Shown here: in pieces, positions 2,586 to 62,300 of the stretch | Numbering within the stretch: position 1 is the first letter of the stretch | Layout of the letters: the number at the start of each line of letters is the position of its first letter | Assembly (NCBI GenBank): GCA_964016885.1 | Contig: OZ024764.1 | Coordinates: forward strand, 20,336,001-20,400,000 | DNA: 64,000 nucleotides | Direction: 5' to 3' | Source: Eledone cirrhosa | Taxonomy: Eukaryota | Translations under genes and position numbers: made by a program | Notes under the pieces: model-generated | The model's database searches: none | Told to the model about the DNA's origin: nothing | What the model saw: the letters and a program-made list of their open reading frames with translations, nothing else

Positions 2586-2726
2586 ATTGGTCACTTGTAC
2601 TTATGTTAAGGTATTGTTCTCAAAATAAATAACATGAAAATCTCATAGATTTGATATTATGAGAGATAAAGCATTTACTGTGAAAATATAATAGTAAATA
2701 TAGAGTAATGTGAATACTAAAGGGTT

Positions 2727-3530
2727 AATCTAATGTCACTAATAACTACTTTTATCAGTCAGTTTAATCTAATGCCACTAATAACTACTTTTATCAGTCA
2801 GTATAATTTAATGCCACTAATAACTACTTTTATCAGTCAGTATAATCTAATGCCACTAATAACTACTTTTATCAGTCAGTATAATCTAAAGTCACTAATA
2901 ACTACTTTTATCTGTCAGTATAATCTAATGTCACTAATAACTACTTTTATCAGTCAGTATAATCTAAAGTCACTAATAACTACTTTTATCTGTCAGTATA
3001 ATCTAATGTCACTAATAACTACTTTTATCAGTCAGTATAATCTAATGTCACTAATAACTACTTTTATCAGTCAGTATAATCTAATGTCACTAATAACTAC
3101 TTTTATCTGTCAGTATAATCTAATGTCACTAATAACTACTTTTATCAGTCAGTTTAATCTACTGCCACTAATAACTACTTTTATCAGTCAGTTTAATCTA
3201 AAGTCACTAATAACTACTTTTATCAGTCAGTATAATCTAATGTCACTAATAACTATTTTTATCAGTCAGTATAATCTAATGTCATTAATAACTACTTTTA
3301 TCAGTAAGTATAATCTACTGCCACTAATAACTACTTTTATCAGTCAGTTTAATCTAATGTCACTAATAACAACTTTTATCTGTCAGTTTAATCTACTGCC
3401 ACTAATAACTACTTTTATCAGTCAGTATAATCTAATGTCACTAATAACTACTTTTATCTGTCAGTTTAATCTAATCTCACTAATAACTACTTTTATCAGT
3501 CAGTATAATCTACTGCCACTAATAACTAAC
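2727..3530. repeat. 39-bp minisatellite (AATCTAATGTCACTAATAACTACTTTTATCAGTCAGTTT), about 20.5 copies
   Basis: Direct tandem repeat; 13-aa periodicity in the ORF track. Confidence 0.97.
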
Positions 3531-5251: not shown

Positions 5252-5520
5252 CTGTATCAATATCAAACTCATTACATCATACTACAACAACAACAACAAT
5301 TGTGTAGATCCATCATCCTTGCTAAAACTGGTGTTAACCTTGTAGGTTTTACCTATGACAGGGATCATAAACACCAGGTTTCCATTTTTGAAGTAGTGTT
5401 TGAAGATTTTGTGTAAATTAAAGTTTTTCACATTAAACTTTCATTTATTATACTTTAACAGGTAAGATATATATTTGTATTTTTAGTAAAGGTTGGGAAC
5501 TTCTGTAATTTAAACCTGCC

Positions 5521-5545
5521 AATAAAATGAAAACTTTTGTTGTTG
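5521..5545 (+). terminator. Putative polyadenylation signal of ZNF1
   Basis: AATAAA 270 nt after the stop, followed by TTTTGTTGTTG; conserved at 19707 and 39491. Confidence 0.6.
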
Positions 5546-5679
5546 CTAGTCTGACATTGATATTAATTCTATTGTCCTGTACATTGTCTCAAAAATCACA
5601 GATTAAACAGATTTTAACAATAACAACAGAAATCAATAACTTGTAAGCCTAATATCTAGCTTCCATTTTAACTATTTGA

Positions 5680-6300
5680 TATTGTTGTTCCCCTCCTGTC
5701 TCTTCAGGTGTTTTAGATTTCAACTTCTATCTACAGTACTATTCCATCACCAAGGCAACATTCATCTGGCTGGCAGCTTACATCAACTCCAGATCTCATC
5801 AGTGGTTCACAACAGGCTGTCTGAAAGAAACTTCCAGATATCTTCTATGTCATAGCTATCAATCTCCTCCTCCTTATCATATGTATCATGTAGAACATCT
5901 CTGAATTTATATTTAAAGGGGGATCTTTTACCATCCCTACCCTTTTCTCTAGTTGTCTTGTACCAGTCTCACAGTCCCTCTATATCTTATATTTAACAGG
6001 GAGATCTTTTACTATCCCTACCCTTTTCTGTAGGTTGTCTTGTACCTCTCTTAAAGTCCCGGTAGATCTTATATTTAACAGGGAGATCTTTTACTTTCCA
6101 ACCCTTCTATCTCCAGATAGTCTTGTATCTGTCAGTCCCTCTAGATCTTACACCTAGTATCTAGTCTATGTTGAGTGGTACGTCCTTCTCCAGTAAAGGA
6201 GTTAATATTCCCAACCATCTGTCTATCCTGTTTTCTGATGAGAATGAAGTCAATCTAGTTTATCTCTTCACCTGATTGAAGTAACTAGATCAAGTAACTA
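5680..6300 (-). mobile_element. Old RTE LINE relic containing an ~82-bp tandem repeat (5907-6150, about 3 copies)
   Basis: Minus strand gives IDFILIRKQDR...TTQHRL and WNSTVD remnants, matching the RTE ORF at 42504-43664. Confidence 0.7.
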
Positions 6301-6440
6301 GATGTTTTCCTGTAAGTTAGTGTTGCAGTGTTTGTGTCACCATGTAAAGTTTATATCTATTAATATAGAGATGTAGTAAAGTTTTCACTGTTGTATCTCT
6401 ATTTTCTAAATATCTTAATAATGTTTCTCTACTATTTCAG

Positions 6441-6885
6441 AATATCACATGACCTTGACAGAAAAGAGTCTTTTAAAGACAACAGAAAGATGTTACATAC
6501 AAGTGATATAAACTTGTTTAGTCTGTGGTGAATTATGGTGAAATATTTCTTCTGAATTGAGATAAATAACAACATTTTCCTTTTTCACTGTCTGGAATAT
6601 TTACAAGATGATTTTACATTCTGATTAAACTTTGGATATTTACAAAGGCGTTTTCAAAATATTTGGATATTGACAAAGATGACATTTGGTAAAATTATGA
6701 ACAATAGAAATATTTACATCAACATAGGAATATTTTCCAAAAGAGATGGGAAAATCATTATACCACTGTAATATTTGTGGTAAAGTATTCTCTCTTCTTC
6801 ATATGTACAACATCTAACTAAACACTTTAACTAACAAACTATTGTGCTATAGAATTGACAAACTTGAAGAATGTTTAATAAATGT
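6441..6885 (+). pseudogene. Relic ZNF terminal exon (acceptor, leader, half finger MGKSLYHCNICGKVFS, stop, AATAAA)
   Basis: Acceptor TTTCTCTACTATTTCAG and upstream intron are homologous to those at 3590-3672; ATG at 6746. Confidence 0.65.
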
Positions 6886-6936
6886 TACAGATTTCTCCAA
6901 ACTGTCGTTTACTAACTTTAATTTGAAACTATATTA

Positions 6937-7211
6937 TCTATATACTACTAAAACTCTGTGATTGTGTCTTGTCTGTAATTTAATACAGCTAAAACAGTGC
7001 ATAATGGGGAAATACTTTGAAAAGAATAAAACAAGTTTTGTATAAATTGGAGCACGGATTCCCAAGATACGGGGGTTTCTGGGTACCTTCATAAATATAG
7101 GGAGAGAAGGAGATAGTGGTTGTGAGAGTGTGGATTGAAAAGGAGAGATAGAAGGAGATGGATGGAAAGGGGAAGAGAGAGAGAGAGAGCTGGTGGTGAT
7201 GTTTAATAAAA

Positions 7212-7258
<47 letters not shown>

Positions 7259-7365
7259 CTATATATATGTCTATTTTTTAACTGTTTGAAAATTATTTTT
7301 AATGGACATGATTTTAAAAAAATAGCTTTAACGGAACAAGACCCAACAGGTCCCGGGTGATCTAG
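6937..7365 (+). mobile_element. Non-autonomous Helitron
   Basis: A|TCTATATACTACTAAAA ... GACC-CAACA-GGTC hairpin ... CTAG|T, no TSD; internal GA and TA microsatellites. Confidence 0.75.
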
Positions 7366-7569
7366 TTTGTTACTAAATACTAGATATTAGAGGGTCATGT
7401 TGTTCTAGATGTGCTGGAAGAGCCATTCCATCTCGTGAGGCTCACACCAGCAGCTAGCCACCTCAGCACCTATGGTGGTATATTTATTATATTATTTATT
7501 CTTTATCATTAACATTAATATAAAAGATAATTATATATTTTTAGAGAAGAACCTCTAATTTCATATGGC

Positions 7570-7880
7570 ATGGGTTAGACGAGTTATCCTGTTGTAAGCA
7601 AGGCCAGGTCAGGTGATAATGTGTTGCTCCTATAGAACAGTGTGGACTGGGTACTTTTTGTTGTGACACCTACACGACCACTTTAAAGTTTGGGCTGGGT
7701 ACTTTTTGTTGTCACCTACATGACCACTTTACAGTGTGGGCTGGGTGCTTTTTGCTGTGACACCTACGCAACCGCTTTATAGTGTGGGCTGGTTTCTAAT
7801 GTTGACTGTGTGTTCTTAACAGTGTGGGCTGGGAGCTTTTTATCATATCTTCTACACAACCACTTTGCAGTGTGGGCAGT
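7570..7880 (-). repeat. RTE 3'-UTR remnant with ~48-bp tandem units
   Basis: Units TTTTGTTGTGACACCTACATGACCACTTTACAGTGTGGGCTGGGTAC match the RTE 3' UTR at ~31930-32025. Confidence 0.7.
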
Positions 7881-7889
7881 GAAATATCA

Positions 7890-8390
7890 GTAATCAGAAG
7901 AAGGGAGGTAGGCATAAAAGCCAAACTTGCTGTCTTCAATTAGGTTTTTGTGCCAACCCTTACCTATGGTCACATATCTTGGGTAATGACCAAAAGAATA
8001 TGATTGCAAATACAAATGGCAGATATGGGATTCCTCTGAAGGGTCTTTGAAGGAACTTTTCTCAATAAAGTGCATAGCTCTGAGATCAGAGAGTCACTCC
8101 AGGTGGAGCTGTTACCTCTCCGAATTGAGAGATTACAGCTGCAATACTATGGCCATGTGGTTAGAATGTCTGAGGAAAGAATCACCGGATAGATTTTACA
8201 GGCTAAACTAACCGGCAGGAGACCCAGGGGTAGACCTGAGCAAGATGGTCACATAACATCCATGAGCTTGGCTGGTCTCTGGGAGATCCAGCCACATAAG
8301 TTGGAGTGGGTTGCTTCTGACAGGACCTGTTGGAGGGAGTGTTTGAGGACTCTGCCCCCAAGACCCTCTCTGGAATAAGTGGGTTAATAA
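7890..8390 (+). mobile_element. Decayed C-terminus of an Expander/Rex3-like RTE LINE
   Basis: Reads FVPTLTYGH.SWVMT...IERLQLQYYGHVVRM...GRRPRGRP; paralogs at ~47380-47875 and, partially, 22215-22370. Confidence 0.7.
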
Positions 8391-8686
8391 GAAGGGGTTG
8401 AGGTTACATAATCAACATCAGATTTCCCTGCTAGCAAGGGTTTAATGAGTCTACTTCAACCAAGTAAGTACTGAAGTGAGGCTACTGATCTCCCAGACAG
8501 ACCAAGGATCTGAGACTTATTTACATAAGGTCTCATTTGCTACTGAGTGCACAGAAAAGGTTGTCATGTCTTTGTCATGATTGAAGGGTTCTCCGACACT
8601 ATTGTCGGGCAAGCTTTCTATGGCCAGATGTCCTTCACATGACCAACCACATTACAGCCTGTGTTGGGTGTGTTTATCATGTAGGT

Positions 8687-10731
8687 GAGACGTAACGAAC
8701 TGAGGGTTACCCAAGGACCACATAGGTCACATGTGTTGTCTGAGGGTTGCACAGTGCAACTAATTATGTACACAACAACTAATTAAAGTCATTTAATAAA
8801 TTATATTGCAGAAAGATTTGTTACTTAAATTTAGAAACATACAATGTACATACAAATGTTTTAGCAGCATTCATGAATACAAAGTAATGAAGTAGTTTGA
8901 CAAAAAACTAAAATTTAACATGTCAACATATACTTGCAGATTGTAACATCAACAAATACATTGTACACAAATAACAACAGTTGAAAACTGAACATTTATT
9001 TGCTACTATTCAACCATTTTTAGTGTTTTGTCCTGAGGCTTGACACTTCTTTCTGTTGACAATGTTTGGTATATCTGGCTGAAATGTCTACAGTTCCAAC
9101 TTTAATCAGAAATGACAAGTGTTGATCTGTCAGCCTTGTTCTCTGAGAAGTTTTTGTTAAGCAAAGTACAGACTCAGTATGGGCAGTGATTTTCAGCTCT
9201 TTGCACATAAGAAAATGAATTAAATTTTCATCTGACAATGGAGACTTCCATAAGCTAAGTCTTCTAATGAAGAACTTGATGTCATCATACAACTGAGTGA
9301 TGGGTTTGTTTTTACCTTGTAATTTCAAATTAAGATCAGTTAATTGTGCAGTAATATCCACAAATAAAGCCAGATGTTGGAGCCAACTTTCATCTTTTAT
9401 TTCACCTGTGTTTTGACCTTTCATCTCCAAAAACATAATTATTTCAACAAATAGAATCTTTTCAGCACTTTGTGACATGTCAACCAGCAGACTTCTGTGT
9501 AGAATGGAACTTCGGTGAACTGATTATCCATATCTTCCAACAACTGGCTGAACTGACGGTGGTTGAGAGCACAACCTCTGATTTAGTTCACTGTCTTTGT
9601 GACCAAGCTAAGCACATGATGCAATTTTAAAATCTTTGAACATAAATTTTGCTGATGAATAATACAGTGAAAATGTGCAAATGATGAATCTAGATATGAG
9701 TTTTCTATTTTTGTTTGTAACTTGGCAGCAACACCATTATGTCTACCAACCATATTTGCAGCACTGTCAGTAGATAAACATGCAAGTTTACTCAGATCAA
9801 AACCATGCAGACCCTGCTTGGCCTTCTCAAAGATGTCCTGGCTTGTTATAGTGTCATGCATGGGGACCAGTTCAATCAGTTCTTCATAAATATTAAATTC
9901 ACTGTCACAGGCGCTGATGAAGAATGCAAGCTGTACTATTCCAGTGATGTCAACAGTCTCATCAATAGCAATAGAAACATGTTCAAACCTTGATGATACA
10001 GCCTTTAACTGTTGTTTCAGATCACCTGACATTTCATTAATCTGTTCAGCAACAGTGTTCCTGGTTAATGAAATGTCTTTGAATAACTCTGCTTTCTCTG
10101 GACAATTTCAGCTGTTTTTACAAGACATTGCTTTACAAAATCTCCTTCACTCTAAGATTTCCCACTCATGGCAATCATTCGACTGAGTTCATAGCTTGCA
10201 GTAACGGAAGTGACATTCTCTTCCTGAATTAACATAAAAGAGGTCTATTGCTGTGTTAAGTTAGACTTCAATTCCTTGAGTCTTGAAACACACGTTGGGG
10301 CTTCATATTTATCCTAAGATCGAGGGTTTGTTTCATAATGTCTTTTTAAATTGTACTCTTTTGGCCTGGCGATGTAGTTGTTGCAAATTAAACAGTGTAT
10401 CTTTCTGTTCACCATTGGGCAAAAATACTGTAATTCCCACTTTTCTTGAAACACTTGCCCTTCTTCATTCAATTTCCTTTTTCTCTTAGCTGGAGGAGCA
10501 CTAACCATTTCAAAAACAAAATCTTTTGAAATTTTGAAAGAAAGTTTTCTGTTAATGAGCTGCACGTGATTAATGGAAGTTAAAAGTAGTTGACAAAAAT
10601 TGCACAAAAAAAATAATTGTATCGAAAAATGTTTAAATTTTATATTAGGAAAATGAAACATGCTCGCACTGTAAAAACCTTTGTGTGGGCCGCAGGTTTG
10701 CTTACAAAGGGCCGCATGTTTGACATGTCTG
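8687..10731 (-). mobile_element. Decayed hAT (Buster/Charlie/SPIN; GTF2IRD2-like) DNA transposon
   Basis: Fragmented ORFs with FQEKWELQYF, CLIC, KEYNLKRHYET, SIAIDETVDIT, STDSAANMVG, HCIIHQQNLC, LNLKLQG; TIR GTTTGACATGTCTG at right, degenerate TIR at left; 8-bp TSD ATGTAGGT at 8679-8686 and 10732-10739 (nnnTAnnn). Confidence 0.88.
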
Positions 10732-10869
10732 ATGTAGGTTACCAACACGAGGGAGGGCAGCATGTCCTTCAATGTCTTCTGCTACATTAACTACCAGGAG
10801 GTCACCACATGAGACAAAGACTACATTTCAAAGAAGGGTCACAAAAGAACTAAATACAAAAGTACCCAC

Positions 10870-11305
10870 AATTGAGCAAAAAGCAAATAATTGAGCTTTG
10901 GGTCTAGGTTAAGGGGCGTAAGTGCTGTGCCCTGTGGACAAGACTACAAAAGTATCCCCCCCCCCCCCTGGTCGATGGACAGTTACACCCACTGCAACAG
11001 CCACCCCAACCTCATGGGACACCCTCTTCAAAAGGGCCACCGACGTTCTGATCTTACAGAGGAGCTTGGCAGTATGGGGTCCAAGTACTTCTGAGGTCTC
11101 GATGGTGACCGGTGTGAAGAGACCTACAATTGATGTCATCCCAGTTATGTTGGACTGTAATATACTGGGGTATAGAGAGGCCTTAACCTGTCACAGCCGG
11201 GCCACCCAGGGTTGTGTCATCTAGGTACCAGACAGGGGTAACTAGACCATGTTGTCAACTGTCAGCACCAATAGGAGTGAGGCGAGTGGGTCCCCTTGCT
11301 AGACA
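10870..11305 (-). mobile_element. CRE-like (RLE-type) non-LTR retrotransposon C-terminal remnant
   Basis: FTPVTIETSEVLGP.TAKLL resembles the F.PVA.ET.G..G motif also seen at 15030-15090; paralog at ~50360-50775. Confidence 0.55.
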
Positions 11306-11829
11306 CCATATATTGCTAATTACTTTAATGAATAATTTGTTTCATACGTAATTATTACTTTTAACACAATAGGATTTTGTACACGTGTTTGTTTGAAAAC
11401 ATCTTTCAAAGAAGTATGAGACAGTCTTTTGCAGTCTTCTGGAGTTGCGACCGATAGATAGTATTAGCTATTGGAAAGACCAATGGAAACATTGTTTCCT
11501 CGGTCCGATTTGACTAAAAGTCGATCAATAAAAAAATATATATTTATATATATATAGAGAGAGAAACACACAAACGTACACTACTGTAAAACATATGTAA
11601 GGGTAGACAACTCTCGTTACCCCCCCCCTTCTTTTTGATATACGTCCTTTAAGTACGTTGTTCAATGGTACCTGCTTTATTTTGTGTCCTAAGTAGATTT
11701 CCGTTTAAGTATTTACGAGATTCACAATGATTCACGTAACCAAGTTACTTACATAGAGATATATTTCACATAGAATCACAACAAATGAAAATATTAAGTC
11801 AACACTCTGTCAATCAGTCTCACATCACA

Positions 11830-12010
11830 TGGGGTGCCGGAGTCTCCCTCTAATACTTTCTGAGACAGTCTTACCTCGAGTGATAGCAAGGCTAAGATGT
11901 TGGAACTACCAAACACCCTCATATGTATCACCTGACACCTCGGTAAGGAGAGCTGCCAACGATAACAAGAACCTCGTTGTCAGGGACCTATCTCCTCCAA
12001 ACTTCTCCAA
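11830..12010 (-). mobile_element. Short CRE-like C-terminal remnant (paralogs 27950-28140, 51518-51700)
   Basis: Homologous to the 62-bp repeat unit at 15648; minus strand reads VSGDTYEGVW*FQHLSLAITRG. Confidence 0.55.
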
Positions 12011-12549
12011 CACCACAGACTAGAATATTCTACTCTTTATTCCCTATCAAATATATTTCAGTCTAGTCATTTATCTTGTATCTTGTATATGTATTTTCAA
12101 AACTAACTGTCACATTTGTGAGACCCCAGTTAGTGATGTTTTTCTCTCCCTCCCACATCCTACATGCTGTAGTAAAAGTGAGGGTCACTGCTTCTGTAGA
12201 CGAACGAAATAAAAGCTAAACTACCAGTAATTATCAGCAAAGTATTTATTCCAGTCTGTGATGTTTGAGAAGCTGGGCTGCTGACAACGAAGTTGTTGTC
12301 ACTGTTGGCGGCTGGCTTTACCGAAGTACCCGATGACTCTTGTGAGGGTACTTAGCTTTTCTGGCAAATTAGCCCCCATATGACCCGATCTTACCGAAGT
12401 ACCCGGTGATCTCTGTAAGAGTACTTAGGTGTTCTATTTTAATTACATTTACTGTTTTCACCTTTATTTTTTTTTATTACAAACTTTAGATAATTTAATT
12501 CGGTAAAAATATTTTTACGTCTCAAAAAAACTTGACCTTTGACATTGAA

Positions 12550-12659
12550 GCATGCGCAGTGGTGCAGTTGTCGACTTCCTGTCCACGTGTTAGTCTTCCT
12601 ACAACATCATTTAGACAACATTTCTGTAAATACTAAACACCTGAGACTATAATGTAAGT
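12550..12659 (+). promoter_or_regulatory. Putative promoter and non-coding first exon of ZNF2
   Basis: GCATGCGCA (NRF1-like, 12550), ACTTCCTG (ETS-like, 12574), CACGTG (E-box, 12584) and donor AAT|GTAAGT (12654); near-identical at 28642-28751 and 53000-53109. Confidence 0.6.
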
Positions 12660-13639
12660 ATTATGTCTATTAATATTGTAGATTAAAGCTCACTTTTCAC
12701 ATCACAAATATATATTTTCTTGTTTGTTTCATTACTGGAAATATAAAATGTTATCGTAATTATCTATATTTTACCTACCTCTAATTAATTAAAGTGGAAA
12801 CTTTTGTTGTTGCTGAAAAATAAATTAACAAAACTAAATATTTAAATATTCTAAAGGTCGTTTTTATATTATGCGATGATATAATTAATATATTTTATTA
12901 CAATTGTATAAATTTACGGTAGAATAACGTTGTAGATATGTTTTAAATATATACATAAATAACACAAGTGTGTAAACAACATTATAACTTGCTGGCAATT
13001 CCTTGAGAAAGACATTACAAATATATTGTCTAAACTGTGTATAATAATATAATTTATTAAACAATAATGATAAAGGAAAGAAAAACACAGTGGGAGATGG
13101 CAATTGACCACCAAACGAGGTAAACATTTTCAACTTTCCCCCTTTTTTTGCTTTGTCCGAGACAACTCAAAATATTCTTCAAGGAACTGGATTTTCCATT
13201 CGGTTGGATCGAACGGATTTTACCATTTATAATCTACGGAGAGGAATAACAGATGTTCGGAGGAAAAAAGAATTGTTTGTGGCAACAACGTAGGGAACCA
13301 ACCTGGAGCAATTGTATCACACAATTATACTTTCCTCCTTAACATACACTTATAATTTTTCAAAATCAAACCCCCCAAATATAAAATATAAATAATTATA
13401 AATGGCGTGGAACCATCCCATCTCCCTCTTGAAATAACCTGAATCTATTTATAGTCAGGTGTGACTGAAAGGTCAATCCATACTTCCATTCTATTTCACA
13501 GAATTAGAAGCTTGGACCACTTGATAGAATTCAGGTCCAGTAATGTAATCACTCCGTAATTGTAAACATCTTGTATCACTATCATTCAGGTTTTGATTTT
13601 ACTTAAGTCTTGCCCATGTTTTTTTTTTTTTTTTTTTTT

Positions 13640-15550
13640 TTACACCAACTCACAATTTCGGTTTTTACTGCGGATTTACCCATGCGAACTATTACACAAA
13701 CTCACAGCCTTAGATTTTGTATTTCTAGCGTTTTTATTTTCCTTCTCTTTGCATGTTCAGTGCTCTTTCTCTCCCACTGTATTTATCTGCCTCTCACATG
13801 ACCACACTCCTCTCCACGTACTCATCATCTTCTCACTCCTTCTACACCTTCCAACGCTGGCCCTCTACTGCCGGCTGTTGCCAGCCCGCCACCTGATTGT
13901 GCCCTCTGTGCCTGCACTAACCAGTACTTAAAGACAATTAAATGTCACCTATGCCACGCAAGCTACCACAGAAGCATGTGTCAGCATCACCAAAGCTCAA
14001 GCCGAAAGGCTTCAACACTGGACCTGTCATAGGTGCCACTTCAGCTCCGTCTATTCCGTGGTTTTGACCAACACTCTACTGACGACTTTGCCACAGCCCC
14101 CCGGGGCTTCTCCAAATCAAAGCTCCTTAGGAGCCCCGATCACAGACCTGGCCTTCGAGTCAACCATCCAATCGAAGATGGTTGGCCTTGAGCAGCTGCT
14201 GAGGAATATTGAAGATATCGAACCCCATCAAGGTTTCTTCTTACTCAGGAACTACCTGTCTATTCCTAAGCTTCTGTATCTGCTCAGGGTCAGCCCCTCT
14301 CACAGATTTCCATCCTGCCTCCAATGCTTCGACGACCTAATCTTCGAGTGACTCGAGTGTCTGGTCAATGTTAGTAAGTGTTCGTCCCTCTCTCTCCCCT
14401 GCTTCCTTTCCTCCACCCAAGCTTGCAGCATCCTCTCCTCTCCAACACGGACTAGTTCCAACAGGGAGTTGTGTGAAGCTCTCCAGCAATGGAGTGAGTT
14501 GGGCTTGTCTCTTCCTGAGAAGGTGGAGGACAGTCGAAGTCAGAGAACTTGGGACAGGATACGTTGGAATGCCACCTTCGACTCCCTCTTCGTCCTCTCA
14601 GATCGGTTTACAAGGTGCCGCCTACCATCTGCCAGCGCCAAATACTCCGGTGACTGGGTCGATGCCTTACCCGTGGCCAACGTTGGAAGCCTACTCAGCC
14701 TGGATGAAGTTCGTGTCTCCATCACCCTCAGAGTGGGAGCTGACGTCTGCATGGGTTTGAGATGTGGCTAACTCCTCGACTCCACAGGCCCCCACGGTCT
14801 TTCTTGCTGCCTGAATGCCGGCCACTTTGCCCGTCACACGGAGCTAAACTTTATTCTGAAGAGAGCTTTGGCCCGGGCAAACATCCCCTTAGTCTTAATC
14901 CGGGACGTCACTGTTAGTGACTCCTTTGCTCTTTCCCACATCCTTGATGCTGCGGTAAGGACGAGAGCCACAGCTTCGGCAGCCGAGCGGAGTAAGACCC
15001 TCAAATATTCTGATCTGTCGGCCAGCTACATTTTTCAGCCTGTGGCTTTCGAGACGTTTGGGGGTGTCGGGCCGCTGACTGCGAGGTTCCTTTCCTCACT
15101 GGCGGCTCGCCTTATAGAGTTAACTGTCGAAATCGCGAGGGCGCTTGGCTGTTCCAGCACCTCAGCCTCGCTATCACCTGAGGTAACACTGCCAGTGTGC
15201 TGGCTTGCCTCAAAACTCATTAGAGAGGTTTCCCAGTACCCCTCGTTGCTGTCTTTTGCTCTGGTGTTGGCTCCGTTGTCCACCCCTTCCTTTACATTTT
15301 CTTTAATATTGCAACATTGAAGGAATTTATCTTTCATTGTATCATCCTTTATAGTGTTACCGAGGCATTTGTAATGTTATTTATATATTTAAAACATATT
15401 TGTTATGTTATTCTACTGTAAATTTATTTATATGCTCTGTTTATATTTTCATTCTGAAGGAACTTATCCACTTTTGTTGATATAAGTGATTCTATGACTT
15501 TCCTCTAAGCATTGTGTCATTATATATGTTATTATAAATGTGAATAAATT
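13640..15550 (+). mobile_element. Internally deleted CRE-like non-LTR retrotransposon, part of a private insertion (~13113-15559) in the ZNF2 intron
   Basis: PKLLYLLR, SGDWVDALP, LRVG..C..CG..D..G.HGLSC....H..RH..LN, DVT, KY..L...YIFQPVAFETFG, WLFQHLSLAIT.GN; AATAAA at ~15543. The empty site is seen at ~53563. Confidence 0.75.
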
Positions 15551-15604
15551 GAATTTACAGTGTGATAATAGGCCACACCTCACACCCTAGGGGTTAACTA
15601 CACA

Positions 15605-15810
15605 CTTTGAGGCAAGCCAACACACTGGCAGCATTACAACGGGTGATGGTGAGGCTAAGGTGTTGAAATAACAAGGTACCCTCACGGGTATCACTTAACA
15701 CCTCATTAAGGTGAGGCTAAGGTGCTGAGATAACCAGGTACTCTTACGGATATCACCTGACACCTCAGTAAGGTGAGGCTACGGTGCTGAAATAACCAGG
15801 TACCCTCACG
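15605..15810 (-). repeat. 62-bp minisatellite derived from a CRE-like C-terminus (about 2.7 copies)
   Basis: Unit GGTGAGGCTAAGGTGCTGAAATAACCAGGTACCCTCACGGGTATCACCTGACACCTCAGTAA; its reverse complement matches 15130-15215. Confidence 0.85.
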
Positions 15811-16175
15811 GAAACGACTAGATTTGTAGAAAAAGTAGGGTGAAAGTATACAAAGAGATGTAGTTTCACAGATCTACCCACACCTCACGTTGGGTGGGAA
15901 TAATTATTTTTCTTAGAATTCTTGCTATACCCCTTTTCCAGTATTTTTTCTCTGGACCCCTTAGATACTTGCAATAGACGTTTTATTTCCCAGTATTAGG
16001 ATTAGGGTTTCCGTTTTCAGTAAGAATAGTCGATTACAAACATCTAAGAGGTCTAGAAATAAAATTAAGGAAAGATAATTATTTCCCAGCCAACTGGAGA
16101 AGTGTGTAGCTCTTCTAAACTCCGATAATCCTGACTCCCACTTTTTATCTACAAATCTAGTCGTTTCCTGCTACT

Positions 16176-16815
16176 TTGTTCCCTGGGGTATGCCTTAGTA
16201 TTTGACACCATCTATCTGTCTTACTCCCTAACTAGAAAGAAGTCAATCTGTCTCATGTGCTCACCTGATTGGTAGGTTATTAGGTGGTTGGTAGGTTTCT
16301 TGAAGTGTTGCAAATGGTTAGTTCACTTGCATCACAAAATACAAGAAGCCTCACTCCTTCATCATTTCTTGAGACATAACCATGACCACCATGTACCCCA
16401 GTGTATCCATCCTGGAGCTGTCCAACATGACCATTGGAGTCCCCTGCTATTATAACTAGGTCTCTGTCATTGTGGTTATCTCTACTTATTCCTTTTCTAC
16501 ATATGGAGCAGGGCCACTTTCCTGAAGGGGTCAGGGTCTTCTCTCCTATCCATGACCACTTTAGTTTTGGCTAAGTATATTCTTAGAACTTACCATTTCA
16601 AATTCTATATCTATAGTTGGTCATCTACATAGAGATGTTTCCATAGACAGCCAGTCTTAAACCTCTCTGTTATGGCTTGGAGAACTATGATGAACAACAG
16701 TGGGCTAAGAACTAAACCATGATGAACTCCTACCTGTACCTTCAATTCCTCACTAAACACACTTTACTGACAGCTTCTCACAAGCCATTCTTCTACACCT
16801 AATTTCTTTAACCCT
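16176..16815 (-). mobile_element. Decayed RTE LINE fragment (unit 2 copy, shortened by deletion)
   Basis: Paralog of 1-620; at ~16176 the sequence jumps from the homolog of 30253 to the homolog of ~35848. Confidence 0.8.
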
Positions 16816-17021
16816 TTAGTATTTAAACTGGCCATATCTGGCCAGAATTGTCCCACATCTTTCTGTTCAAACTGGCCGTAATTGGTCACTTATACTTATG
16901 TTAAGGTATTGTTCTCAAAATAAGTAACATCAAATTCTCGTAGATTTGATATTATGTGAGATAAAGCATTTACTGTGAAAATATAATAGTAAATATAGAG
17001 TAATGTGAATACTAAAGGGTT

Positions 17022-17122
17022 AATCTAATGTCACTAGTAACTACTTTTATCAGTCAGTTTAATCTAATGTCACTAATAACTACTTTTATCAGTCAGTTTA
17101 ATCTTACGTCACTAATAACTAA
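17022..17122. repeat. 39-bp minisatellite, about 2.5 copies
   Basis: Same unit as 2727-3530. Confidence 0.9.
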
Positions 17123-17477
17123 CCTATGTTAGTCAGCACATTCTTGACCAAAGAAGGCCTTAGTATTTATTACAGTCCATTTATCAATATAGAAATATTA
17201 TATGAAATTTGTACTGATGTATTACAAGTTTCTGAGTATCTTATAAATGTTCTTTTATTATTTCAGAATACCAGAGGACATTGGCATTAAAGAGCACGTT
17301 ACATCAGACATATCCTCAATATTAACCATTTCTAATGAAAGACACTACCCATCATTTTCAAATAATTTTGAAAAAACTCAACACTTTGAAGGGATTTAGT
17401 AATATAACTAAATTTCTCAGTATTAAGCTGTGAATTATGTGAGAAACTGAGGTGATTGATATCTTTTAGTAGGAGAT

Positions 17478-19433
17478 ATGTCGAAAAATATAGTAAAATC
17501 ACCATTCCACTGTGATGTCTGTGGTAAATCATTCTCTAAAAATACTAAATTAACTAGGCACAAACTAAGTCACACAGAAGAGAAGCCATATCACTGTGAT
17601 ATATGTGGTAAATCATTCTCTAAAAATACTAAATTAACTAGACACAAACTAAGTCATACAGAAGAGAAGCCATATCACTGTGATATCTGTGGTAAATCAT
17701 TCTCTAAAAATACTAAATTAACTAGACACAAAGTAAGTCATACAGAAGAGAAGCCATATCACTGTGATATCTGTGGTAAATCATTCTCTAAAAATACTAA
17801 ATTAACTAGACATAAACTAAGTCATACAGAAGAGAAGCCATATCACTGTGATATCTGTGGTAAATCATTCTCTAAAAATACTAAATTAACTAGACACAAA
17901 CTAAGTCATACAGAAGAGAAGCCATATCACTGTGATATCTGTGGTAAATCATTCTCTAAAAATACTAAATTAACTAGACACAAACTAAGTCATACAGAAG
18001 AGAAGCCATATCACTGTGATATCCGTGGTAAATCATTCTCTAAAAATACTAAATTAACTAGACATAAACTAAGTCATACAGAAGAGAAGCCATATCACTG
18101 TGATATCTGTGGTAAATCATTCTCTAAAAATACTAAATTAACTAGACATAAACTAAGTCATACAGAAGAGAAGCCATATCACTGTGATATCTGTGGTATA
18201 TCATTCTCTAAAAATACTAAATTAACTAGACACAAACTAAGTCATACAGAAGAGAAGCCATATCACTGTGATATCTGTGGTAAATCATTCTCTAAAAATA
18301 CTAAATTAACTAGACACAAACTAAGTCATACAGAAGAGAAGCCATATCACTGTGATATCCGTGGTAAATCATTCTCTAAAAATACTAAATTAACTAGACA
18401 TAAACTAAGTCATACAGAAGAGAAGCCATATCACTGTGATATCTGTGGTAAATCATTCTCTAAAAATACTAAATTAACTAGACATAAACTAAGTCATACA
18501 GAAGAGAAGCCATATCACTGTGATATCTGTGGTAAATCATTCTCTAAAAATACTAAATTAACTAGACACAAACTAAATCATACAGAAGAGAAGCCATATC
18601 ACTGTGATATCCGTGATAAATCATTCTCTAAAAATAATAAATTAACTAGGCACAACTCTATTCATACAGGAGAGAAGCCACACCACTGTGACATCTGTGA
18701 TAAATCATTTACTCACAGTAGTACCTTAACTAGACACAAACGTATTCATACAGGAGAGAAGCCATATCACTGTGACATCTGTGATAAATCGTTTTCTGGC
18801 CGTAGTACCTTGACTATTCACCAACGTATTCATACAGGAGAGAGGCCATATCGCTGTGACATCTGTCATAAATCATTCTCTCAAAGTAGTACTTTCACTA
18901 ATCACCAACGTATTCATTCAGGAGAGAGGCCATATCACTGTGATATCTGTGGTAAATCATTCTCTGTTAATAATTACCTAATTGTTCATAAACGTATTCA
19001 TACAGGAGAGAAGAGATATCATTGTGATATCTGTGGTAAATCATTCACTCACAGTGGTACCTTAACTTATCACAAACGTGTTCATACAGGAGAGAAACCA
19101 TATCACTGTGATATCTGTGATAAATCATTCAGTCACAGTGGCACCTTAACTACTCACAAACGTACTCATACAGGAGAGAAGCCATATCACTGTGACGTAT
19201 GTAGTAAATCATTCTCTGTTAGTAATAGCCTAACTACTCACAAACGTATTCATACAGGAGAGAAACCATATCAGTGTGATATCTGTGATAAATCATTCTC
19301 TGATACTAGTAACTTAACTATTCACAAACGTACTCATACAGGTGAGAAACCATATCACTGTGACATCTGTGGTAAATCATTCTCGAAAAGTAGTAACTTA
19401 ACTCAGCATGTGCATATTCATACAGAAGTTTAG
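17478..19433 (+). CDS. Tandem C2H2 zinc-finger protein ZNF2, 23 fingers (1-14 near-identical; 7, 11 and 14 have second Cys->Arg)
   Basis: 651 aa = 10 + 22x28 + 25; thirteen KNTKLTR helices with TEEKP linkers, one KNNKLTR, then nine diverse fingers. Confidence 0.95.
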   Translation: MSKNIVKSPFHCDVCGKSFSKNTKLTRHKLSHTEEKPYHCDICGKSFSKNTKLTRHKLSHTEEKPYHCDICGKSFSKNTKLTRHKVSHTEEKPYHCDICGKSFSKNTKLTRHKLSHTEEKPYHCDICGKSFSKNTKLTRHKLSHTEEKPYHCDICGKSFSKNTKLTRHKLSHTEEKPYHCDIRGKSFSKNTKLTRHKLSHTEEKPYHCDICGKSFSKNTKLTRHKLSHTEEKPYHCDICGISFSKNTKLTRHKLSHTEEKPYHCDICGKSFSKNTKLTRHKLSHTEEKPYHCDIRGKSFSKNTKLTRHKLSHTEEKPYHCDICGKSFSKNTKLTRHKLSHTEEKPYHCDICGKSFSKNTKLTRHKLNHTEEKPYHCDIRDKSFSKNNKLTRHNSIHTGEKPHHCDICDKSFTHSSTLTRHKRIHTGEKPYHCDICDKSFSGRSTLTIHQRIHTGERPYRCDICHKSFSQSSTFTNHQRIHSGERPYHCDICGKSFSVNNYLIVHKRIHTGEKRYHCDICGKSFTHSGTLTYHKRVHTGEKPYHCDICDKSFSHSGTLTTHKRTHTGEKPYHCDVCSKSFSVSNSLTTHKRIHTGEKPYQCDICDKSFSDTSNLTIHKRTHTGEKPYHCDICGKSFSKSSNLTQHVHIHTEV

Positions 19434-20092
19434 CTGTATCAATATCAAACTCATTACATCATACAACAACAACAACAACAACAATTGTGTAGATCCATCA
19501 TCCTTGCTAAAACTGGGGTTAACCTTGTAGGTTTTACCTATGACGGGGATCATAAACACCAGGTTTCCATTTTTGAAGCAGTGTTTGAAGATTTTGTGTA
19601 AAGTAAAGTTTTTCACATTAAACTTTGATTTATTATACTTTAACAGGTAAGATATATATTTGTATTTTCAGTAAAGGTTTGGGAATTTCTGTAATTTAAA
19701 CCTGCCAATAAAATGAAAACTTTTGTTGTTGCTAGTCAGACATTGATATTAATTCTATTGTCCTGTACATCGTCTCACATATCACAGATTAAACAGATTT
19801 TAACAATAACAACAGAAATCAATAACTTGTAAGCCTAATATCTAGCTTCCATTTTAACTATTTGATATTGTTGTTCCCCTCCTGTCTCTTCAGGTCTTTT
19901 AGATTTCAACTTCTATCCACTGTACTATTCCATCACCAAGGCAACATTCATCTGGCTGGCAGCTTACATCAGCTACAGATCTCATCAGTGGTTCACAACA
20001 GGCTGTCTGAAAGAAACTTCCAGATATCTTCTATGTCATAGCTATCAATCTCCTCCTCCTTATCATATGTATCATGTAGAACATCTCTGAAT

Positions 20093-28641: not shown

Positions 28642-28751
28642 GCATGCGCAGTGGTGCAGTTGTCGACTTCCTGTCCACGTGTTAGTCTTCCTACAACATC
28701 ATTTAGACAACATTTCTGTAAATACTAAACACCTAAGACTATAATGTAAGT
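28642..28751 (+). promoter_or_regulatory. Putative promoter and non-coding first exon of ZNF3
   Basis: Same NRF1/ETS/E-box cluster; donor GT at 28746. Confidence 0.6.
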
Positions 28752-36490: not shown

Positions 36491-36691
36491 ATATAAACTG
36501 GCCATATCTGGCCAGACTTCTCCCACATCTTTCTGTTCAAACTGGCCGTAACTGGTCACTTCTACTTATGTTAAGGTATTGTTCTCAAAATAAGTAACAT
36601 CAAAATCTCATAGATTTGATATTATGTGAGATAAAGAATTTACTGTGAAAATGTAATAGTAAATATAGAGTAATGTGAATACTAAAGGGTT

Positions 36692-36988
36692 AATCTGATG
36701 TCACTAATAACTACTTTTATCTGTCAGTATAATCTAATGTCACTAATAACTACTTTTATCAGTCAGTTTAATCTAATGCCACTAATAACTACTTTTATCA
36801 GTCAGTTTAATCTAATGTCACTAATAACTACTTTTATCAGTCAGTTTAATCTAATGTCACTAATAACTACTTTTATCAGTCAGTTTAATCTAATGTCACT
36901 AATAACTACTTTTATCAGTCAGTTTAATCTACTGCCACTAATAACTACTTTTATCAGTCAGTTTAATCTACTGCCACTAATAACTAAC
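36692..36988. repeat. 39-bp minisatellite, about 7.5 copies
   Basis: Same unit as 2727-3530. Confidence 0.95.
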
Positions 36989-37946: not shown

Positions 37947-39221
37947 ATGTCGAAAAATATAGTAAAATCACCATTCCACTGTGATGTCTGTGGTAAATCA
38001 TTCTCTAAAAATAATAAATTAACTAGACACAAACTAAGTCATACAGAAGAGAAGATATATCACTGTGATATCTGTGGTAAATCATTCTCTAAAAATAATA
38101 AATTAACTAGACACAAACGTATTCATACAGGAGAGAAACTATATCAGTGTGATATCTGTGATAAGTCATTTTCTCAAACTTATACCTTAAATATTCATAA
38201 GTGTATTGGTACAGGAGAGGAGCCATATCACTGTGGTATATGTAGTAAATCATTCTCTTACAGAAGTAGCTTTGTTAAACACCAACGTATTCATACAGGA
38301 GAGAAACCATATCACTGTGATATCTGTAGTAAATCATTCTCTGACAGAAGTAGGTTTGTTAAACACCAACGTATTCATACAGGAGAGAAGCCATATCACT
38401 GTGATATCTGTGATAAATCATTCTCTCAGAGTAATCACTTAACTACTCACAAACGTATTCATACAGGAGAGAAACCATATCACTGTGATATCTGTGGTAA
38501 AACGTTCTCTAAAAATAATAACCTAACTACTCACAAACGTATTCATACAGGAGAGAACCCATATCATTGTGATATCTGTGGTAAATCATTCACTTGTAGT
38601 CATCACCTAACTACTCACAAACGTATTCATACAGGAGAGAAGCCATCTCAATGTGATATCTGTGATAAATCATTCAGTGACAGTAGTAGCTTCAGAGTTC
38701 ACAAACAAATTCATACAGGAGAGAAGCCACATCACTTTGACATCTGTGGTAAATCATTCAGTCACAATAATACCTTAACTAAACACCATCGTATTCATAC
38801 AGAAGAGCAGCCATATCACTGTGATATCTGTGGTAAATCATTCTCTCAGAGTAATCACCTAACTACTCACAAACGTATTCATACAGGAGTGAAACCATAT
38901 CACTGTGATATCTGTGGTAAAACGTTCTCTAAAAATAATAACCTAACTACTCACAAACGTATTCATACAGGAGAGAAACCATATCACTGTGATAAAACGT
39001 TCTCTAAAAACAATAACCTAACTACTCACAAACGTATTCATACAGGAGAGAACCCATATCATTGTGATATCTGTGGTAAATCATTCACTTGTAGTCATCA
39101 CCTAACTACTCACAAACGTATTCATACAGGAGAAAAGCCATATCACTGTGACATCTGTGGTAAATCATTCTCTTGTAGTGGTAACTTAACCAAGCATGTG
39201 CGTATTCATACAGAAGTTTAG
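37947..39221 (+). CDS. Tandem C2H2 zinc-finger protein ZNF3, 15 fingers (3, 10 and 13 defective)
   Basis: 424 aa; finger 3 second His->Gly, finger 10 Cys->Phe, finger 13 in-frame 9-bp deletion (HCDKTF). Confidence 0.93.
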   Translation: MSKNIVKSPFHCDVCGKSFSKNNKLTRHKLSHTEEKIYHCDICGKSFSKNNKLTRHKRIHTGEKLYQCDICDKSFSQTYTLNIHKCIGTGEEPYHCGICSKSFSYRSSFVKHQRIHTGEKPYHCDICSKSFSDRSRFVKHQRIHTGEKPYHCDICDKSFSQSNHLTTHKRIHTGEKPYHCDICGKTFSKNNNLTTHKRIHTGENPYHCDICGKSFTCSHHLTTHKRIHTGEKPSQCDICDKSFSDSSSFRVHKQIHTGEKPHHFDICGKSFSHNNTLTKHHRIHTEEQPYHCDICGKSFSQSNHLTTHKRIHTGVKPYHCDICGKTFSKNNNLTTHKRIHTGEKPYHCDKTFSKNNNLTTHKRIHTGENPYHCDICGKSFTCSHHLTTHKRIHTGEKPYHCDICGKSFSCSGNLTKHVRIHTEV

Positions 39222-41860: not shown

Positions 41861-44800
41861 ACTCTCTCTAACATATAAGTCCCTCTCGCTCTCCCTAATA
41901 TAAATAAGAATGTTACGAAGGACAGAACCTCAGAATTTGTCAACCCTTATTAAATGGTCAGTCGATTCTACGAAAATGTAATGTATTATAGAACATTTTC
42001 TTCTTGTCTCCTTAAAACCTGGTTCATTCATCCATATATATCTACAATCGTTGCTATCCTTGCCCTAAATTAATCTTCTCCACGCTTGTTCTAAATAATC
42101 TCTCTCTTTGCTAACTACCCCATATCCCTCCCTCCCGCCCCCACTCTCCACCTTTACTATTTGGACCAATCACAAGTCAACGGCCTATGCTATCACTACT
42201 GGCTGATTTTCGATATGATGGATGGACTAAGGAATTTCTGGAGAGTCTGAAGAATCTGGACACTCGATGACAATGCCAAAGATAACGACAAATTCACCTC
42301 ATGCTGGCGGACGAAAGGGCAAGGCCCCCCCCCCTCTTTGTTTCGGCCGCGGATGGCCAACATAACCCCAAACTCATTCCCCTCACCCCTCCCCGCGCCC
42401 CATCCTCAAAACACAATCCAAAACTTCAGAGTTGGTACCATGAACGTAGGCACCTTAAAAGGCCGCTCTAACGAGGTTGTAGAAATGCCTGAACGTAAGG
42501 AGGTTGATGTTTGCTGTATCCAAGAGACCAGGTGGAGGGGCGGGTCTGCTAGATTCATTGTGGGTAAAAAAACGTTGCTATAAGCTTTTCTGGGTGGGGA
42601 ATGACAATGGGATAGGTGGGGTAGGAATCATGTTAGCAGAAAAATGGGTGGATAAGATAATAGATGTAAATAGAGTGAATAACAGAATAATTAAAATAAG
42701 ACTTGTTCTAAACAGAACTTCTGTGACAGTAATATCTGCATACGCGCCCAAATCCGGACTGCCTGGCGCTATAAAAGACAGATTCTATGAGACACTGATG
42801 CTCACTACCTCCCAAATAACCGACAGTGACTATATAATTATTGCTGGCGACCTAAATGGCCACGTTGGACAACATTGTGACGGCTATGACGGAATCCACG
42901 GAGGCTATGGGTTTGGTACTAGAAGCGAGGAAGGCTCCAGAATCCTGGAATTCTGTGATGCAAATAACCTAACAATCTGTAACACTAACTTCAAAAAACG
43001 AGACAATCACTTGATCACCTACAGATCAGGGGAACATACCAGCCAGGTAGATTATATCCTTACCAGAAGACGTGACAGAGTGTCTGTTGTAAACACTAAA
43101 TCCCTCCCCCATGAAGAATGCACCTCCCAACATAGACTGATAATTAGCGACCTCATAGTCAGGACGAGACGTACTAGACAGCAGAAGAGGACTATCCTCA
43201 GGAGAAAAATATGGAAGCTAAAGGATCCCACAGCCAGAAATAAATTTCAAAGCATATTACTTGATGCTTTCGACAGTAAGGAAGAGCAATTAGAGTCGTA
43301 CAAGGTAGAGGAACAGTGGGAATTCCTGAAAGCAAACCTGCTGATGGCGGCAGACGAAGTCTGTGGCTGGAGCAGGCCTGTAGGCAGGAGGAGAGTAACA
43401 TGGTGGTGGAACAGTAAGGTGGAGGGGTCAATCAAGGCCAAAAAGCAGGCTTGGAAAGCATGGCGGGATGGGGGAAGTAGAGAAGACTATCAAGTGGCCA
43501 GGAGGGAAGCTAGGAGACAAGTGTACTTCGCAAGAAGGGAAGCAGAGGAAAAAAAGTTCAAGCATGTTCTACAACGCGAGGACCAAAAACGTGAGGTGTT
43601 CAGGATTGCTAGGCAATGTGTCAAGGAAAACCGTGATATTGGTCGGGGAGAAGTGTGTACTTAACGATGATGGCGTACTTGCCATCACTGACGCTGATAA
43701 GAAGGTAGCTTGGAAGTGTCACTACGAAAGGCTACAAAATGAGGAGAATAAATGGGAGAAAGACAGTCTCCCCCACATCGACCCAATAGAGGGACCAGCA
43801 GTGTTAGTCGAAGGTAGTATAATAAGTAAGGCAATCAAAGATATGAAGACGGGTAAGGCGGCTGGGCCTTCGGAAATAGTTGCTGAGATGCTGAAAGCCT
43901 CTGGTACGGTGGGACACACCATGGTCACCCGGATAGTAAACCAAGTCATACAGAATGGGGTTGTTCCGAAGGACTGGCGTAGCAGCATCATCGTTAACTG
44001 TTACAAGGGTAAAGGAGACGCCCTAGATAGGAGTAACTATAGAGGTATTAAATTAATCGACCAGGTCATGAAGGTCATGGAAAAAGTAATAGCGCAACTA
44101 ATCAGAGAGAGAATTGATCTAGATGAAATGCAGTTTGGGTTTGTGTCAGGCAAAAGTACCACAGACGCTCTTTTCATTGAACGACAACTACAGGAGAAGT
44201 ACCTAGCTAAAAGTAAACCCCTATACTTAGCTTTTGTCGACTTGGAGAAACCCTTCGACAGAGTCCCCCGTTCCATTATCTGGTGGGCTCTAAGAAAACT
44301 AGGTGTTGACGAATGGCTTGTGAGAGCTATACAAGCCATGTATAAAGAAACAGCCAGCAAGGTTAGAATTAACAACGAATATAGTGAAGAGTTTAGCGTA
44401 AAAGTTGGTGTCCATCAGGGCTCTGTTCTTAGCCCCCTACTATTTATTATTGCCCTTCAGGCTATAACAGAGGAGTTCAAGACCGGCTGCCCATGGGAAC
44501 TCCTATACGCAGATGATCTAACGCTCATAGCTGAATCAATGGCCGAGCTAGAGAAGAAATTCCAAACATGGAAGCACGGCCTAGAATCAAAAGTCCTTAA
44601 AATTAACCTGGCTAAGACTAAAGTTCTAGTTTGTAGGAAAGAAAATAAGGCGCCGGTCCCTTCCGGGAAATGGCCATGCTCAGTGTGTAGGAAAGGCGTA
44701 GGTAGAAACTCCATTTTATGTCCCAAATGCAAAGTATGGGTGCATAAAAGATGTAGTGGGATCACAGGTAAGCTAACTAAGAACACAGATTTTACATGTG

Positions 44801-45848
44801 GCCGGTGCTCTGGTGCAATAAGTAGCAGCAAGTGCCCACAAAATACTAACTCTTTCAATTGCGCAGAGGGTTCTATAGCAATAGTGGACAGCTTCCGTTA
44901 CCTGGGTGACAACATCAGCAGTGGGGGAGGGTGCTCTGAAAGTACAGTAGCTAGAGTCAGAACTGGATGGAAAAAGTTCAGAGAGCTTATAACACTATTA
45001 GCCACTAAAGGGTTGTCCCTAAAAATGAAAGGCAGGTTATATGATGCCTGCATACGAACAGCAATGTTGCATGGCAGTGAGACCTGGGCATTGTGTGCAG
45101 AGGATATACGCAGACTAGAGAGGAACGAAGCTTGCATGCTCCGCTGGATGTGTAATAGTAATATACGTGAACAGCAAAGCATAAACGAACTAAGGAAAAA
45201 ATTAGAAATAAGAGGGATCAGATGTTGTTTACTCGAGAGAAGACTACGTTGGTATGGTCACGTGATGCGCATGAAAGACGACAGCTGTATAACAAAGTGC
45301 AGGGCAATAAAGATAGATGGTAGCCACGGAGTAGGCAGACCCAGAAAAACCTGGGACGAGCTGATAAATCCCGACCTCACACACTTACACCTCTCCAAGA
45401 CAATGTCACTGGACCGAGACCTTTGGCGGTACTCAGTAACAGAGAAGACCCGCCCTACCTAAATACAAAGTAAAACCTACTACAGTCAGTAGGCATCTCT
45501 AACAAAATACACCCCCGTCCCACCACCCCCACCCCATCCACACCGCCCCTTTCAATGTAAAGTTATGTTGGTGCCACAACATCCAGGCCGAAACAAATGA
45601 GATCGTGTAGGTGTCACGACAAAAAACACACAGTCCACGCTGTAATGTGGCCGTGTAGGCAACACGTTAAAAACCTCCCAGTCCCACACTGTAAATGTGA
45701 TTGGTGTTAGGAAGGGCATCCAGCCGAAGAAAACCCGCCAGACAGTCTTATGTGAGCAAGACAACCACTCTTGCCTCAAGTGGGAAAACTCCCGTCCAAA
45801 CCCATGCAAGCGTGGAACATGGACATTAAACGATGATGATGATGATGA
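41861..45848 (+). mobile_element. Apparently full-length (~4 kb) RTE-clade LINE
   Basis: 5' UTR, EN-RT-PHD-like ORF, 3' UTR and (GAT)n tail; flanked by a probable TSD ATATATATATATAC within a TA microsatellite. Confidence 0.92.
42338..45462 (+). pseudogene. RTE ORF (APE endonuclease + RT + PHD-like C4HC3 cluster) split by two +1 frameshifts
   Basis: GTMNVGTL/CIQETRW, SAYAP, GDLNGHVG, VDYIL, QHRLI, NYRGIKL, QFGF, HQGSVLSP, YADD, CSVC..CPKC..WVH..C..CGRC; shifts at ~42570 (A7 run) and ~43641. Confidence 0.92.
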
Positions 45849-52888: not shown

Positions 52889-52999
52889 CTTAGCTGTTCT
52901 ATTTTAATTACATTTACTGATTTCAACTTTCATTTTTTATTACAAACTTTACATAATTTAATTCCGTAAAAATATTTTACGTCACAAAAAAACATTGAA

Positions 53000-58375: not shown

Positions 58376-58453
58376 ATATAAACTGGCCAGAGATAAAGCA
58401 TTTACTGTGAAAATATAATAGTAAATATAGAGTAATGTGAATACTAAAGGGTT

Positions 58454-61759: not shown

Positions 61760-62300
61760 GAGAGGAACCAGATCATTAACTACACATAAACATATACATA
61801 CAGCTGGGATGCCATTTCACATTGATATATTTGGTAAATCCTTCTCTAAATGTTGTGGCTTCACTACACACTAACATACAGGATAGGAACTATATCACTG
61901 TGATGTCTGTGCTAAATAATTCTCTAAATGTTGTGGCTTCCCTACACACTAACATACAGGAAAGGAACTATATCACCGTGATGTCTGTGCTAAATAATTC
62001 TCTAAATGTTGTGGCTTCCCTACACACTAACATACAGGAAAGGAACTATATCACCGTGATGTCTGTGCTAAATAATTCTCTAAATGTTGTGGCTTCACTA
62101 CACATTAACACATACAGGAGAGGAACTATATCACTGTGGTGTCTGTGCTAAATAATTCTCTAAATGTTGTGGCTTCCCTACACAGTAACACATACAGGAG
62201 AGGAACTATATCACTGTGGTGTCTGTGATAAATAATTCTCTTGTAAAGGTTACTTGATGCAACTCAAACACAATCAGACAAGATAAAAACCATGTCACTC
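61760..62300 (+). pseudogene. Degenerate zinc-finger repeats amplified as a ~78-80-bp tandem array
   Basis: CAC TGT GAT GTC TGT GCT AAA TAA TTC TCT repeated with a shared stop; 26-aa periodicity in another frame. Confidence 0.8.

Follow-up and report, generated by a model that had tools for sequence, protein, structure and literature searches.

A homogenised block of 13 near-identical zinc fingers in a tandem C2H2 gene cluster

Why should one member of a zinc-finger gene cluster carry 13 nearly identical fingers in a row: do they read a periodic DNA target, as the original prediction supposed, or has an 84-bp coding unit multiplied and simply been tolerated? The window analysed here, 64 kb of DNA free of N, consists of four tandem segmental copies with flanks 94-97% identical, each with a finger gene (ZNF1 to ZNF4), common tandem repeats and transposon fragments. 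The block lies in the second of these genes.

Architecture of the ZNF2 array

The open reading frame of ZNF2 divides as follows:

17478..19433, plus strand: ZNF2 ORF, ATG at 17478 and stop at 19433, 651 aa, 23 C2H2 units, no effector domain
17508..18599, plus strand: homogenised block, 13 in-frame 84-bp KNTKLTR/TEEKP fingers, units 7 and 11 without the second Cys
18600..18683, plus strand: finger 14, a KNNKLTR unit with Cys>Arg, closest to ZNF3 finger 2
18684..19433, plus strand: fingers 15-23, nine ordinary and diverse fingers, all four zinc ligands intact in 9 of 9

The frame is open across 1.95 kb without an indel, and from the domain scan it encodes fingers and nothing else; the units match PF00096/PF13465 as repeated C-x2-C-x12-H-x3-H, with all four ligands in 20 of the 23. 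Linkers read TEEKP after units 1-13 and are TGEKP-like after units 14-22. The predicted fingerprint KNTKLTR (Lys at -1, Thr at +2, Lys at +3, Arg at +6) with TEEKP linkers is seen in every one of units 1-13; the proposed extent of 13-14 fingers stands for 13 but not for finger 14, which has 12 differences, KNNKLTR and TGEKP. Units 1-13 depart from the majority unit by 3, 1, 1, 1, 0, 0, 2, 1, 1, 0, 2, 1 and 1 of 84 bases, respectively, and units 2-13 differ from one another by 1.5/84 on average, or 1.8%. Two variants fall where they had been described: Cys>Arg (TGT>CGT) at 18024, 18360 and 18612, i.e. in units 7, 11 and 14, and a silent CAC>CAT state in units 4, 7, 8, 11 and 12. The dead units split the block into intact-finger runs of 6, 3 and 2.

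The block lies far beyond background, since in 240 of 240 fetched zinc-finger proteins, a sample biased by the search, no run of neighbouring fingers at most 2 aa apart exceeds 4, and the K-1/K+3/R+6 combination occurs in 0 of the 2596 fingers of those homologues. A homologue search with the block returned generic long arrays at 32-57% identity, none of them homogenised, with a longest same-fingerprint run of 3 (120 of 120); an identical ZNF2 protein had no match in the protein collection searched; and a PDB search gave generic C2H2 arrays only, the best being ZFP568, with no matching helix among the three alignments listed. A single-sequence AlphaFold model of units 6-9 reached a pLDDT of 41.6 and was discarded.

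The finger framework is closest to octopod sequences: 5 of the top 7 scored homologues are from Octopus and one is from Acipenser, and the best (P0225, Octopus sinensis) scores 0.89, a measure of similarity and not a phylogeny with named octopus genes. Large lineage-specific C2H2 clusters have been described in coleoids, and the present cluster resembles them, as far as the accessible text of those reports goes, in its tandem, lineage-specific multi-finger genes (PMC12513265, PMC9068888); it differs from them in having one member with 13 near-identical fingers and an upstream linker that is non-coding. The block is genuinely present in the sequence and is unusual within an otherwise known kind of gene cluster. 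No description of a homogenised finger block in cephalopods was found in the literature searched, most subscription papers lying outside the reach of that search.

Ancestry, growth and selection

Three further features bear on the origin of the block:

37977..38144, plus strand: ZNF3 fingers 1 and 2, corresponding to the block unit and to finger 14 but not amplified
17760..18515, plus strand: stretch with a likely four-unit (336-bp) period, CAT in units 4/8/12 and CGT plus CAT in units 7/11
61835..62241, plus strand: internal control, a finger-derived 78-bp unit containing stop codons and repeated in tandem about 5 times, with no difference between units 2 and 3

ZNF3 finger 1 is 4 of 84 bases away from the majority unit. 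In a tree of 72 columns, in which many forks are open, the block units cluster with that finger (support 99/98) and finger 14 lies closest to ZNF3 finger 2, so that what has been amplified is the gene's atypical first finger. That ZNF3 has only two fingers of this type is right in so far as both of its first fingers are KNNKLTR, but the KLSH/TEEK tail is in finger 1 only. An Asn>Thr change at +2 is common to 13 of 13 block copies, the later mutations are nested inside the block, and the units carry no indels; the suggestion of an 84-bp coding minisatellite is borne out, with growth by tandem duplication. Divergence is 1.8% inside the block versus 2.6-3.9% between the paralog flanks, on which ground amplification or homogenisation would be later than the segmental duplications. 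ZNF2 as a whole is a mosaic, sharing a 605-bp leader deletion with ZNF1 and its first finger with ZNF3.

A higher-order duplication of four fingers was also proposed, and the evidence for it is mixed: a permutation test on units 2-13 gives p = 0.0097 at lag 4, which rises to 0.12 once the choice among six lags is taken into account, and including unit 14 gives 0.017, or 0.17 corrected. The period is carried by two sites (units 4/8/12 and units 7/11), and the Cys>Arg of finger 14 is off the 336-bp period because only 3 units, where 4 are needed, separate it from unit 11. We regard the four-finger period as suggestive, that is, likely rather than established.

Local turnover is high, as seen in the copy variation of a 39-bp repeat, in a 252-bp period in ZNF4 and in ZNF3 fingers that recur identically. 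The 39-bp repeat is intronic and has 20.6, 2.6, 7.6 and 14.6 copies at 2726-3528, 17020-17121, 36690-36986 and 58452-59021, respectively; 82-, 62- and 48-bp repeats likewise differ in copy number between the cluster units. The 252-bp period of ZNF4 comprises three fingers (60012-60884 and 60859-61160), and the ZNF4 frame is broken by an insertion starting with (ATC)6, beyond which broken fingers continue. One finger sequence recurs without a difference across 72 bases in ZNF1 unit 3 (4082) and in two ZNF3 units (38565, 39060), pointing to probable exchange between paralogs.

Does the identity of the fingers reflect selection on what they bind? A possible but rather unlikely alternative to neutral growth is that the block is a selected periodic reader, predicted to bind G-rich triplet repeats (GGG/GGT, possibly GTT) with avidity, finger number tuning that avidity for a microsatellite, a satellite or a transposon tail. 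Its contact residues are invariant in 13 of 13 units of an open frame, but with six distinct mutations in units 2-13, 0 of 6 falling at contact positions, such invariance has a chance probability of 0.48. Four of the six are non-synonymous (dN/dS 0.47, p = 0.32 against neutrality), and one of the six removes a zinc ligand and is present in two units, 7 and 11, so that ligand loss has spread inside the block, which speaks against a selected reader. Among the 45 non-block fingers a crude count gives a framework pN/pS of 0.48 (p = 0.013) and a helix value of 2.43 (p = 0.28), and the finger family looks constrained. The block's value matches this framework, so that selection on the block may have acted, although the test has almost no power; the block is compatible with neutrality and with family constraint alike, and six mutations cannot separate them.

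The argument that identical fingers imply a periodic target thus fails on the chance expectation above and on the internal control, in which a stop-ridden finger unit was also amplified about 5-fold; finger amplification at this locus has no need of protein function. Nor is there support for dead fingers as spacers: they are common in the cluster, ZNF1 having 1 among its 16 units and ZNF3 having 3 among its 15.

We accordingly favour, at a probability of roughly 55%, an amplification by unequal crossing-over of an atypical, probably weak-binding first finger that has likely been tolerated and not selected, its binding properties being predictions. Unequal crossing-over in a recombination-prone cluster would recently have multiplied the first finger of ZNF2, by single-unit amplification at first and later by a four-unit duplication that would have copied a zinc-ligand loss. 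The gene may tolerate a block that binds G-rich DNA weakly or serves as a tether ahead of nine ordinary fingers; the protein would be an effector-less array in which those nine C-terminal fingers likely set DNA specificity.

Leader, promoter and public sequencing runs

Two features lie upstream of the ZNF2 ATG:

12550..12653, plus strand: putative promoter and non-coding exon 1, with GCATGCGCAG, ACTTCCTG and CACGTG motifs; GTAAGT donor after 12653
17267..17477, plus strand: exon-2 leader of 211 nt, closed in every frame, with 2 upstream ATGs; acceptor at 17267

The promoter-like block and its donor are nearly invariant in three cluster units (12550-12653, 28642-28745, 53000-53103), and its motifs are ones that we take to be NRF1, ETS and E-box sites. 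We infer that 12550..12653 is an exon; it has no ATG. The old coding linker, now the leader, has stops in every frame in each of the four paralogs, and translation would therefore begin at the ORF's own ATG. The 605-bp deletion lies at 3836/3837 in ZNF1 and at 17430/17431 in ZNF2, and leaves 2-3 upstream ATGs, compared with 13-17 in leaders without it; this loss would favour translation and, like the indel-free open frame, counts against the favoured reading. A 43-aa leader peptide has no credible homologue, the one match being a low-complexity beetle sequence judged to be chance. An AATAAA signal lies at 19707, 3' of ZNF2, and there is no SbfI, PstI, EcoRI or MspI site within 16.3-20.5 kb. 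Elsewhere in the window are a self-inverted element of about 630 bp (52259-52889, arms 89% identical) and LINE-like remnants, namely an RVT_1 with a PHD finger at 43399-45462 within 42483-45462 on the plus strand and an RVT_1 at 968-2578 on the minus strand.

Of 24 public runs none contained as much as half of the sampled words, the best reaching 0.42, and four were aligned to 17130-17620; the alignments are of contigs, whose depth is no copy number and which show presence, not absence, and drop rare alleles. Run X1, which is DNA-like, has leader contigs at depth 1821-2628 (17130-17531) and a contig with three differences, at depth 737, that reads from the distance columns as the type of units 4/8/12; the share of the CAT-type unit at 17561 is 36%, versus 5/13 or 5/14 in the window, and the unit-to-leader depth is about 1. 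Run X4 is another sample with the same organism label. It has no cover over 17198-17248, and one contig aligns from exactly 17267 with 30 foreign letters before it; because this contig begins at the acceptor and 17198-17248 is uncovered, X4 looks like spliced RNA, its library and tissue not being on record. In X4 the deletion junction has depth 71.8 and the CAT unit of the 4/8/12 type depth 67.5, and units of this type outnumber leader sequence by about 2:1. The presence of the unit in an RNA-like run speaks for a selected reader and, with its excess there, against the favoured reading.

These data bear on how many units and genes there are. In organism A the leader reaches a depth of about 2000, whereas B gives a single contig at 4.9 and D almost nothing, a pattern that suggests a burst of this subfamily restricted to one lineage and of uncalibrated size. 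A single-copy depth of about 147 would fit the window, with 5 CAT units and about 13 genes; one of about 10-17 would mean more than 100 genes and 43-74 CAT units. Run X5 has a single leader contig, at depth 4.9, which runs across the 605-bp deletion junction, and the KLSH/TEEK unit is found in none of the contigs of X5 or X8, which are presence-only data.

The count of 13 comes from the assembly and from the nested, indel-free variants. Could the locus really hold just 1-3 such fingers, expanded in assembly? Aligned reads reach 17620, where the aligned stretch ended, none of them spanning the block or joining two KNTKLTR units; the best runs hold 0.42 of the sampled words; and a unit-to-leader depth near 1 in X1 is what one unit per gene across many genes could give. 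Assembly expansion is nevertheless very unlikely given the nested substitutions between units, the lack of indels, the depth of the 4/8/12-type contig in both X1 and X4, and the closeness of the CAT share to that of the window.

The same upstream features raise the question of whether ZNF2 is a young pseudogene, transcribed or silent, and the block a plain minisatellite in untranslated DNA. Such a reading gains from the stops in the old coding linker of all four paralogs, from a putative exon 1 without ATG together with two upstream ATGs, from the interruption of ZNF4, and from T17320, private to ZNF2 but not seen in the X4 contigs (C at depth 170/170). Against this, rare alleles are lost from contigs and X4 stems from a different sample. 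The pseudogene reading also has to contend with an open 651-aa frame, tail fingers intact in 9 of 9, the pN/pS of the family framework, and a conserved promoter, donor, acceptor and polyA signal, and we hold it to be unlikely.

Predicted binding and parallels with known arrays

From its Lys and Arg contacts, the predicted target triplet of the block is G-G-G/T. Its linker and helix end differ from those of its neighbours: the glycine of TGEKP, replaced in the block's TEEKP, is kept in 39 of 42 other window fingers, and +9, which is Leu or Val in the block, is Arg in 33 of those 42. The linker glycine caps the helix, and the +9 Arg has a role in zinc-finger binding. As the block lacks both and its dead units cut the array, it is predicted to bind weakly, and G-rich DNA if anything.

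Published pairings, as given in the accessible parts of the sources, put Lys at +3 with a middle guanine (10.1101/774158) and Arg or Lys with G and Asn with A (PMC12978192). On these pairings the (GAT)n target of the original prediction is unlikely, and its (GTT)n target would fit only with a degenerate reading of G-G-G/T. At the linker glycine position, G>R lowers KLF1 affinity about 4-fold (PMC11327367), G>E not being among the changes tested in that paper. TEEKP is not unique to the block, being found in 58 of 2596 fingers of the fetched homologues.

This wider use of TEEKP counts against the favoured reading, as does the point that thirteen copies could make up for weak single fingers. For a selected periodic reader, the guanine-directed contacts are favourable, and satellites are named among KZNF targets in the accessible text of PMC10547256, in which Octopus ZNFs are also among those tested for predicted transposon binding. 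The linker itself, the missing effector domain and (GAT)n lying off the code weigh on the other side. A candidate target lies close by:

19463..19483, plus strand: (ACA)7 tract after the ZNF2 stop, reading (GTT)6 on the minus strand

Within the window no stretch of G[GT][GT] exceeds 6 triplets, in a count without a shuffle control, and that maximum is this (GTT)6 just after the ZNF2 stop; so short a maximum, for the window only, tells against a selected reader, whereas in its favour three paralogs have (GTT)n just past their stops, ZNF2 having the longest tract. We treat the tract as a lead only. The (ACA)n copies just past the stops number 5 at 5284 (ZNF1), 7 at 19463 (ZNF2) and 5 at 39254 (ZNF3). 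A telomere-repeat target was considered and rejected, its period being 6 and its only tract in the window having 2 copies.

The closest formal parallel is PRDM9, likewise an 84-bp coding tandem array homogenised by recombination and evolving in concert, on the accessible text of PMC5519329 and PMC8925151. The likeness stops at the minisatellite: the contact-residue diversity statistic is 0.0 in units 1-13 and 0.39 in units 15-22, compared with 0.667-0.684 for PRDM9 in the top-ranked bovid rows of Table 1 of PMC5519329. No PR/SET, KRAB or SSXRD domain was found by Pfam in the ORF or in frames of at least 40 codons within 5260-17480, and 0 of 61 plus-strand frames of at least 40 aa between ZNF1 and ZNF2 match any Pfam family. 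An N-terminal effector on an upstream exon, as in KRAB-ZFP and FiNZ-ZNF repressors, is also not found, the leader being closed and giving no Pfam match in a scan that did not include FiNZ. ZNF2 differs further in its TEEKP linkers, in the dead fingers inside the array, and in being homogenised in part only. That the block belongs to a PRDM9-like specifier of recombination hotspots is extremely improbable: a whale PRDM9 without diversity between fingers does exist (accessible part of PMC5519329), but here the ORF holds fingers only, contact positions show no diversity at all, and the gene sits in a multi-copy cluster.

Two other systems share aspects of its growth. Young mouse KRAB-ZFP clusters share growth by segmental duplication, common and private fingerprints, and transposon-rich intergenic DNA; unlike them the present cluster has no KRAB, and the accessible text of PMC12575710 concerns whole-gene duplication and not runs of a single finger. 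Concerted evolution of domain repeats is described in PMC5100051, as far as its accessible text goes, as rare, lineage-specific and limited to single family members, with high-purity repeats ascribed to unequal crossing-over, all of which resembles the amplification favoured here; that paper differs in that its case study is C tripleX, and the arms-race cause is its own hypothesis, not shown for ZNF2.

Were the array instead a natural homopolymer, its 13 identical fingers reading G-rich triplet repeats in an octopod protein without an effector, and its finger number varying as in a VNTR and tuning avidity, which seems doubtful, then the repeats read would include tracts beside its own gene family, with a subfamily burst in one lineage, and it would be a non-PRDM9 coding minisatellite selected for repeat binding in an invertebrate. 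If the block is neutral, homogenised finger arrays alone are no evidence of PRDM9-like function. The binding targets of the cephalopod C2H2 expansions are an open question (PMC12513265, accessible text), and an array of identical fingers offers an unusually simple substrate for a target test, with a period-3, G-rich target as the prediction. Within a few percent of divergence the locus displays single-finger amplification, a likely higher-order duplication, dead fingers that have spread, and mosaic exchange among the paralogs; the block catches, in progress, the finger-level turnover that builds cephalopod zinc-finger repertoires.
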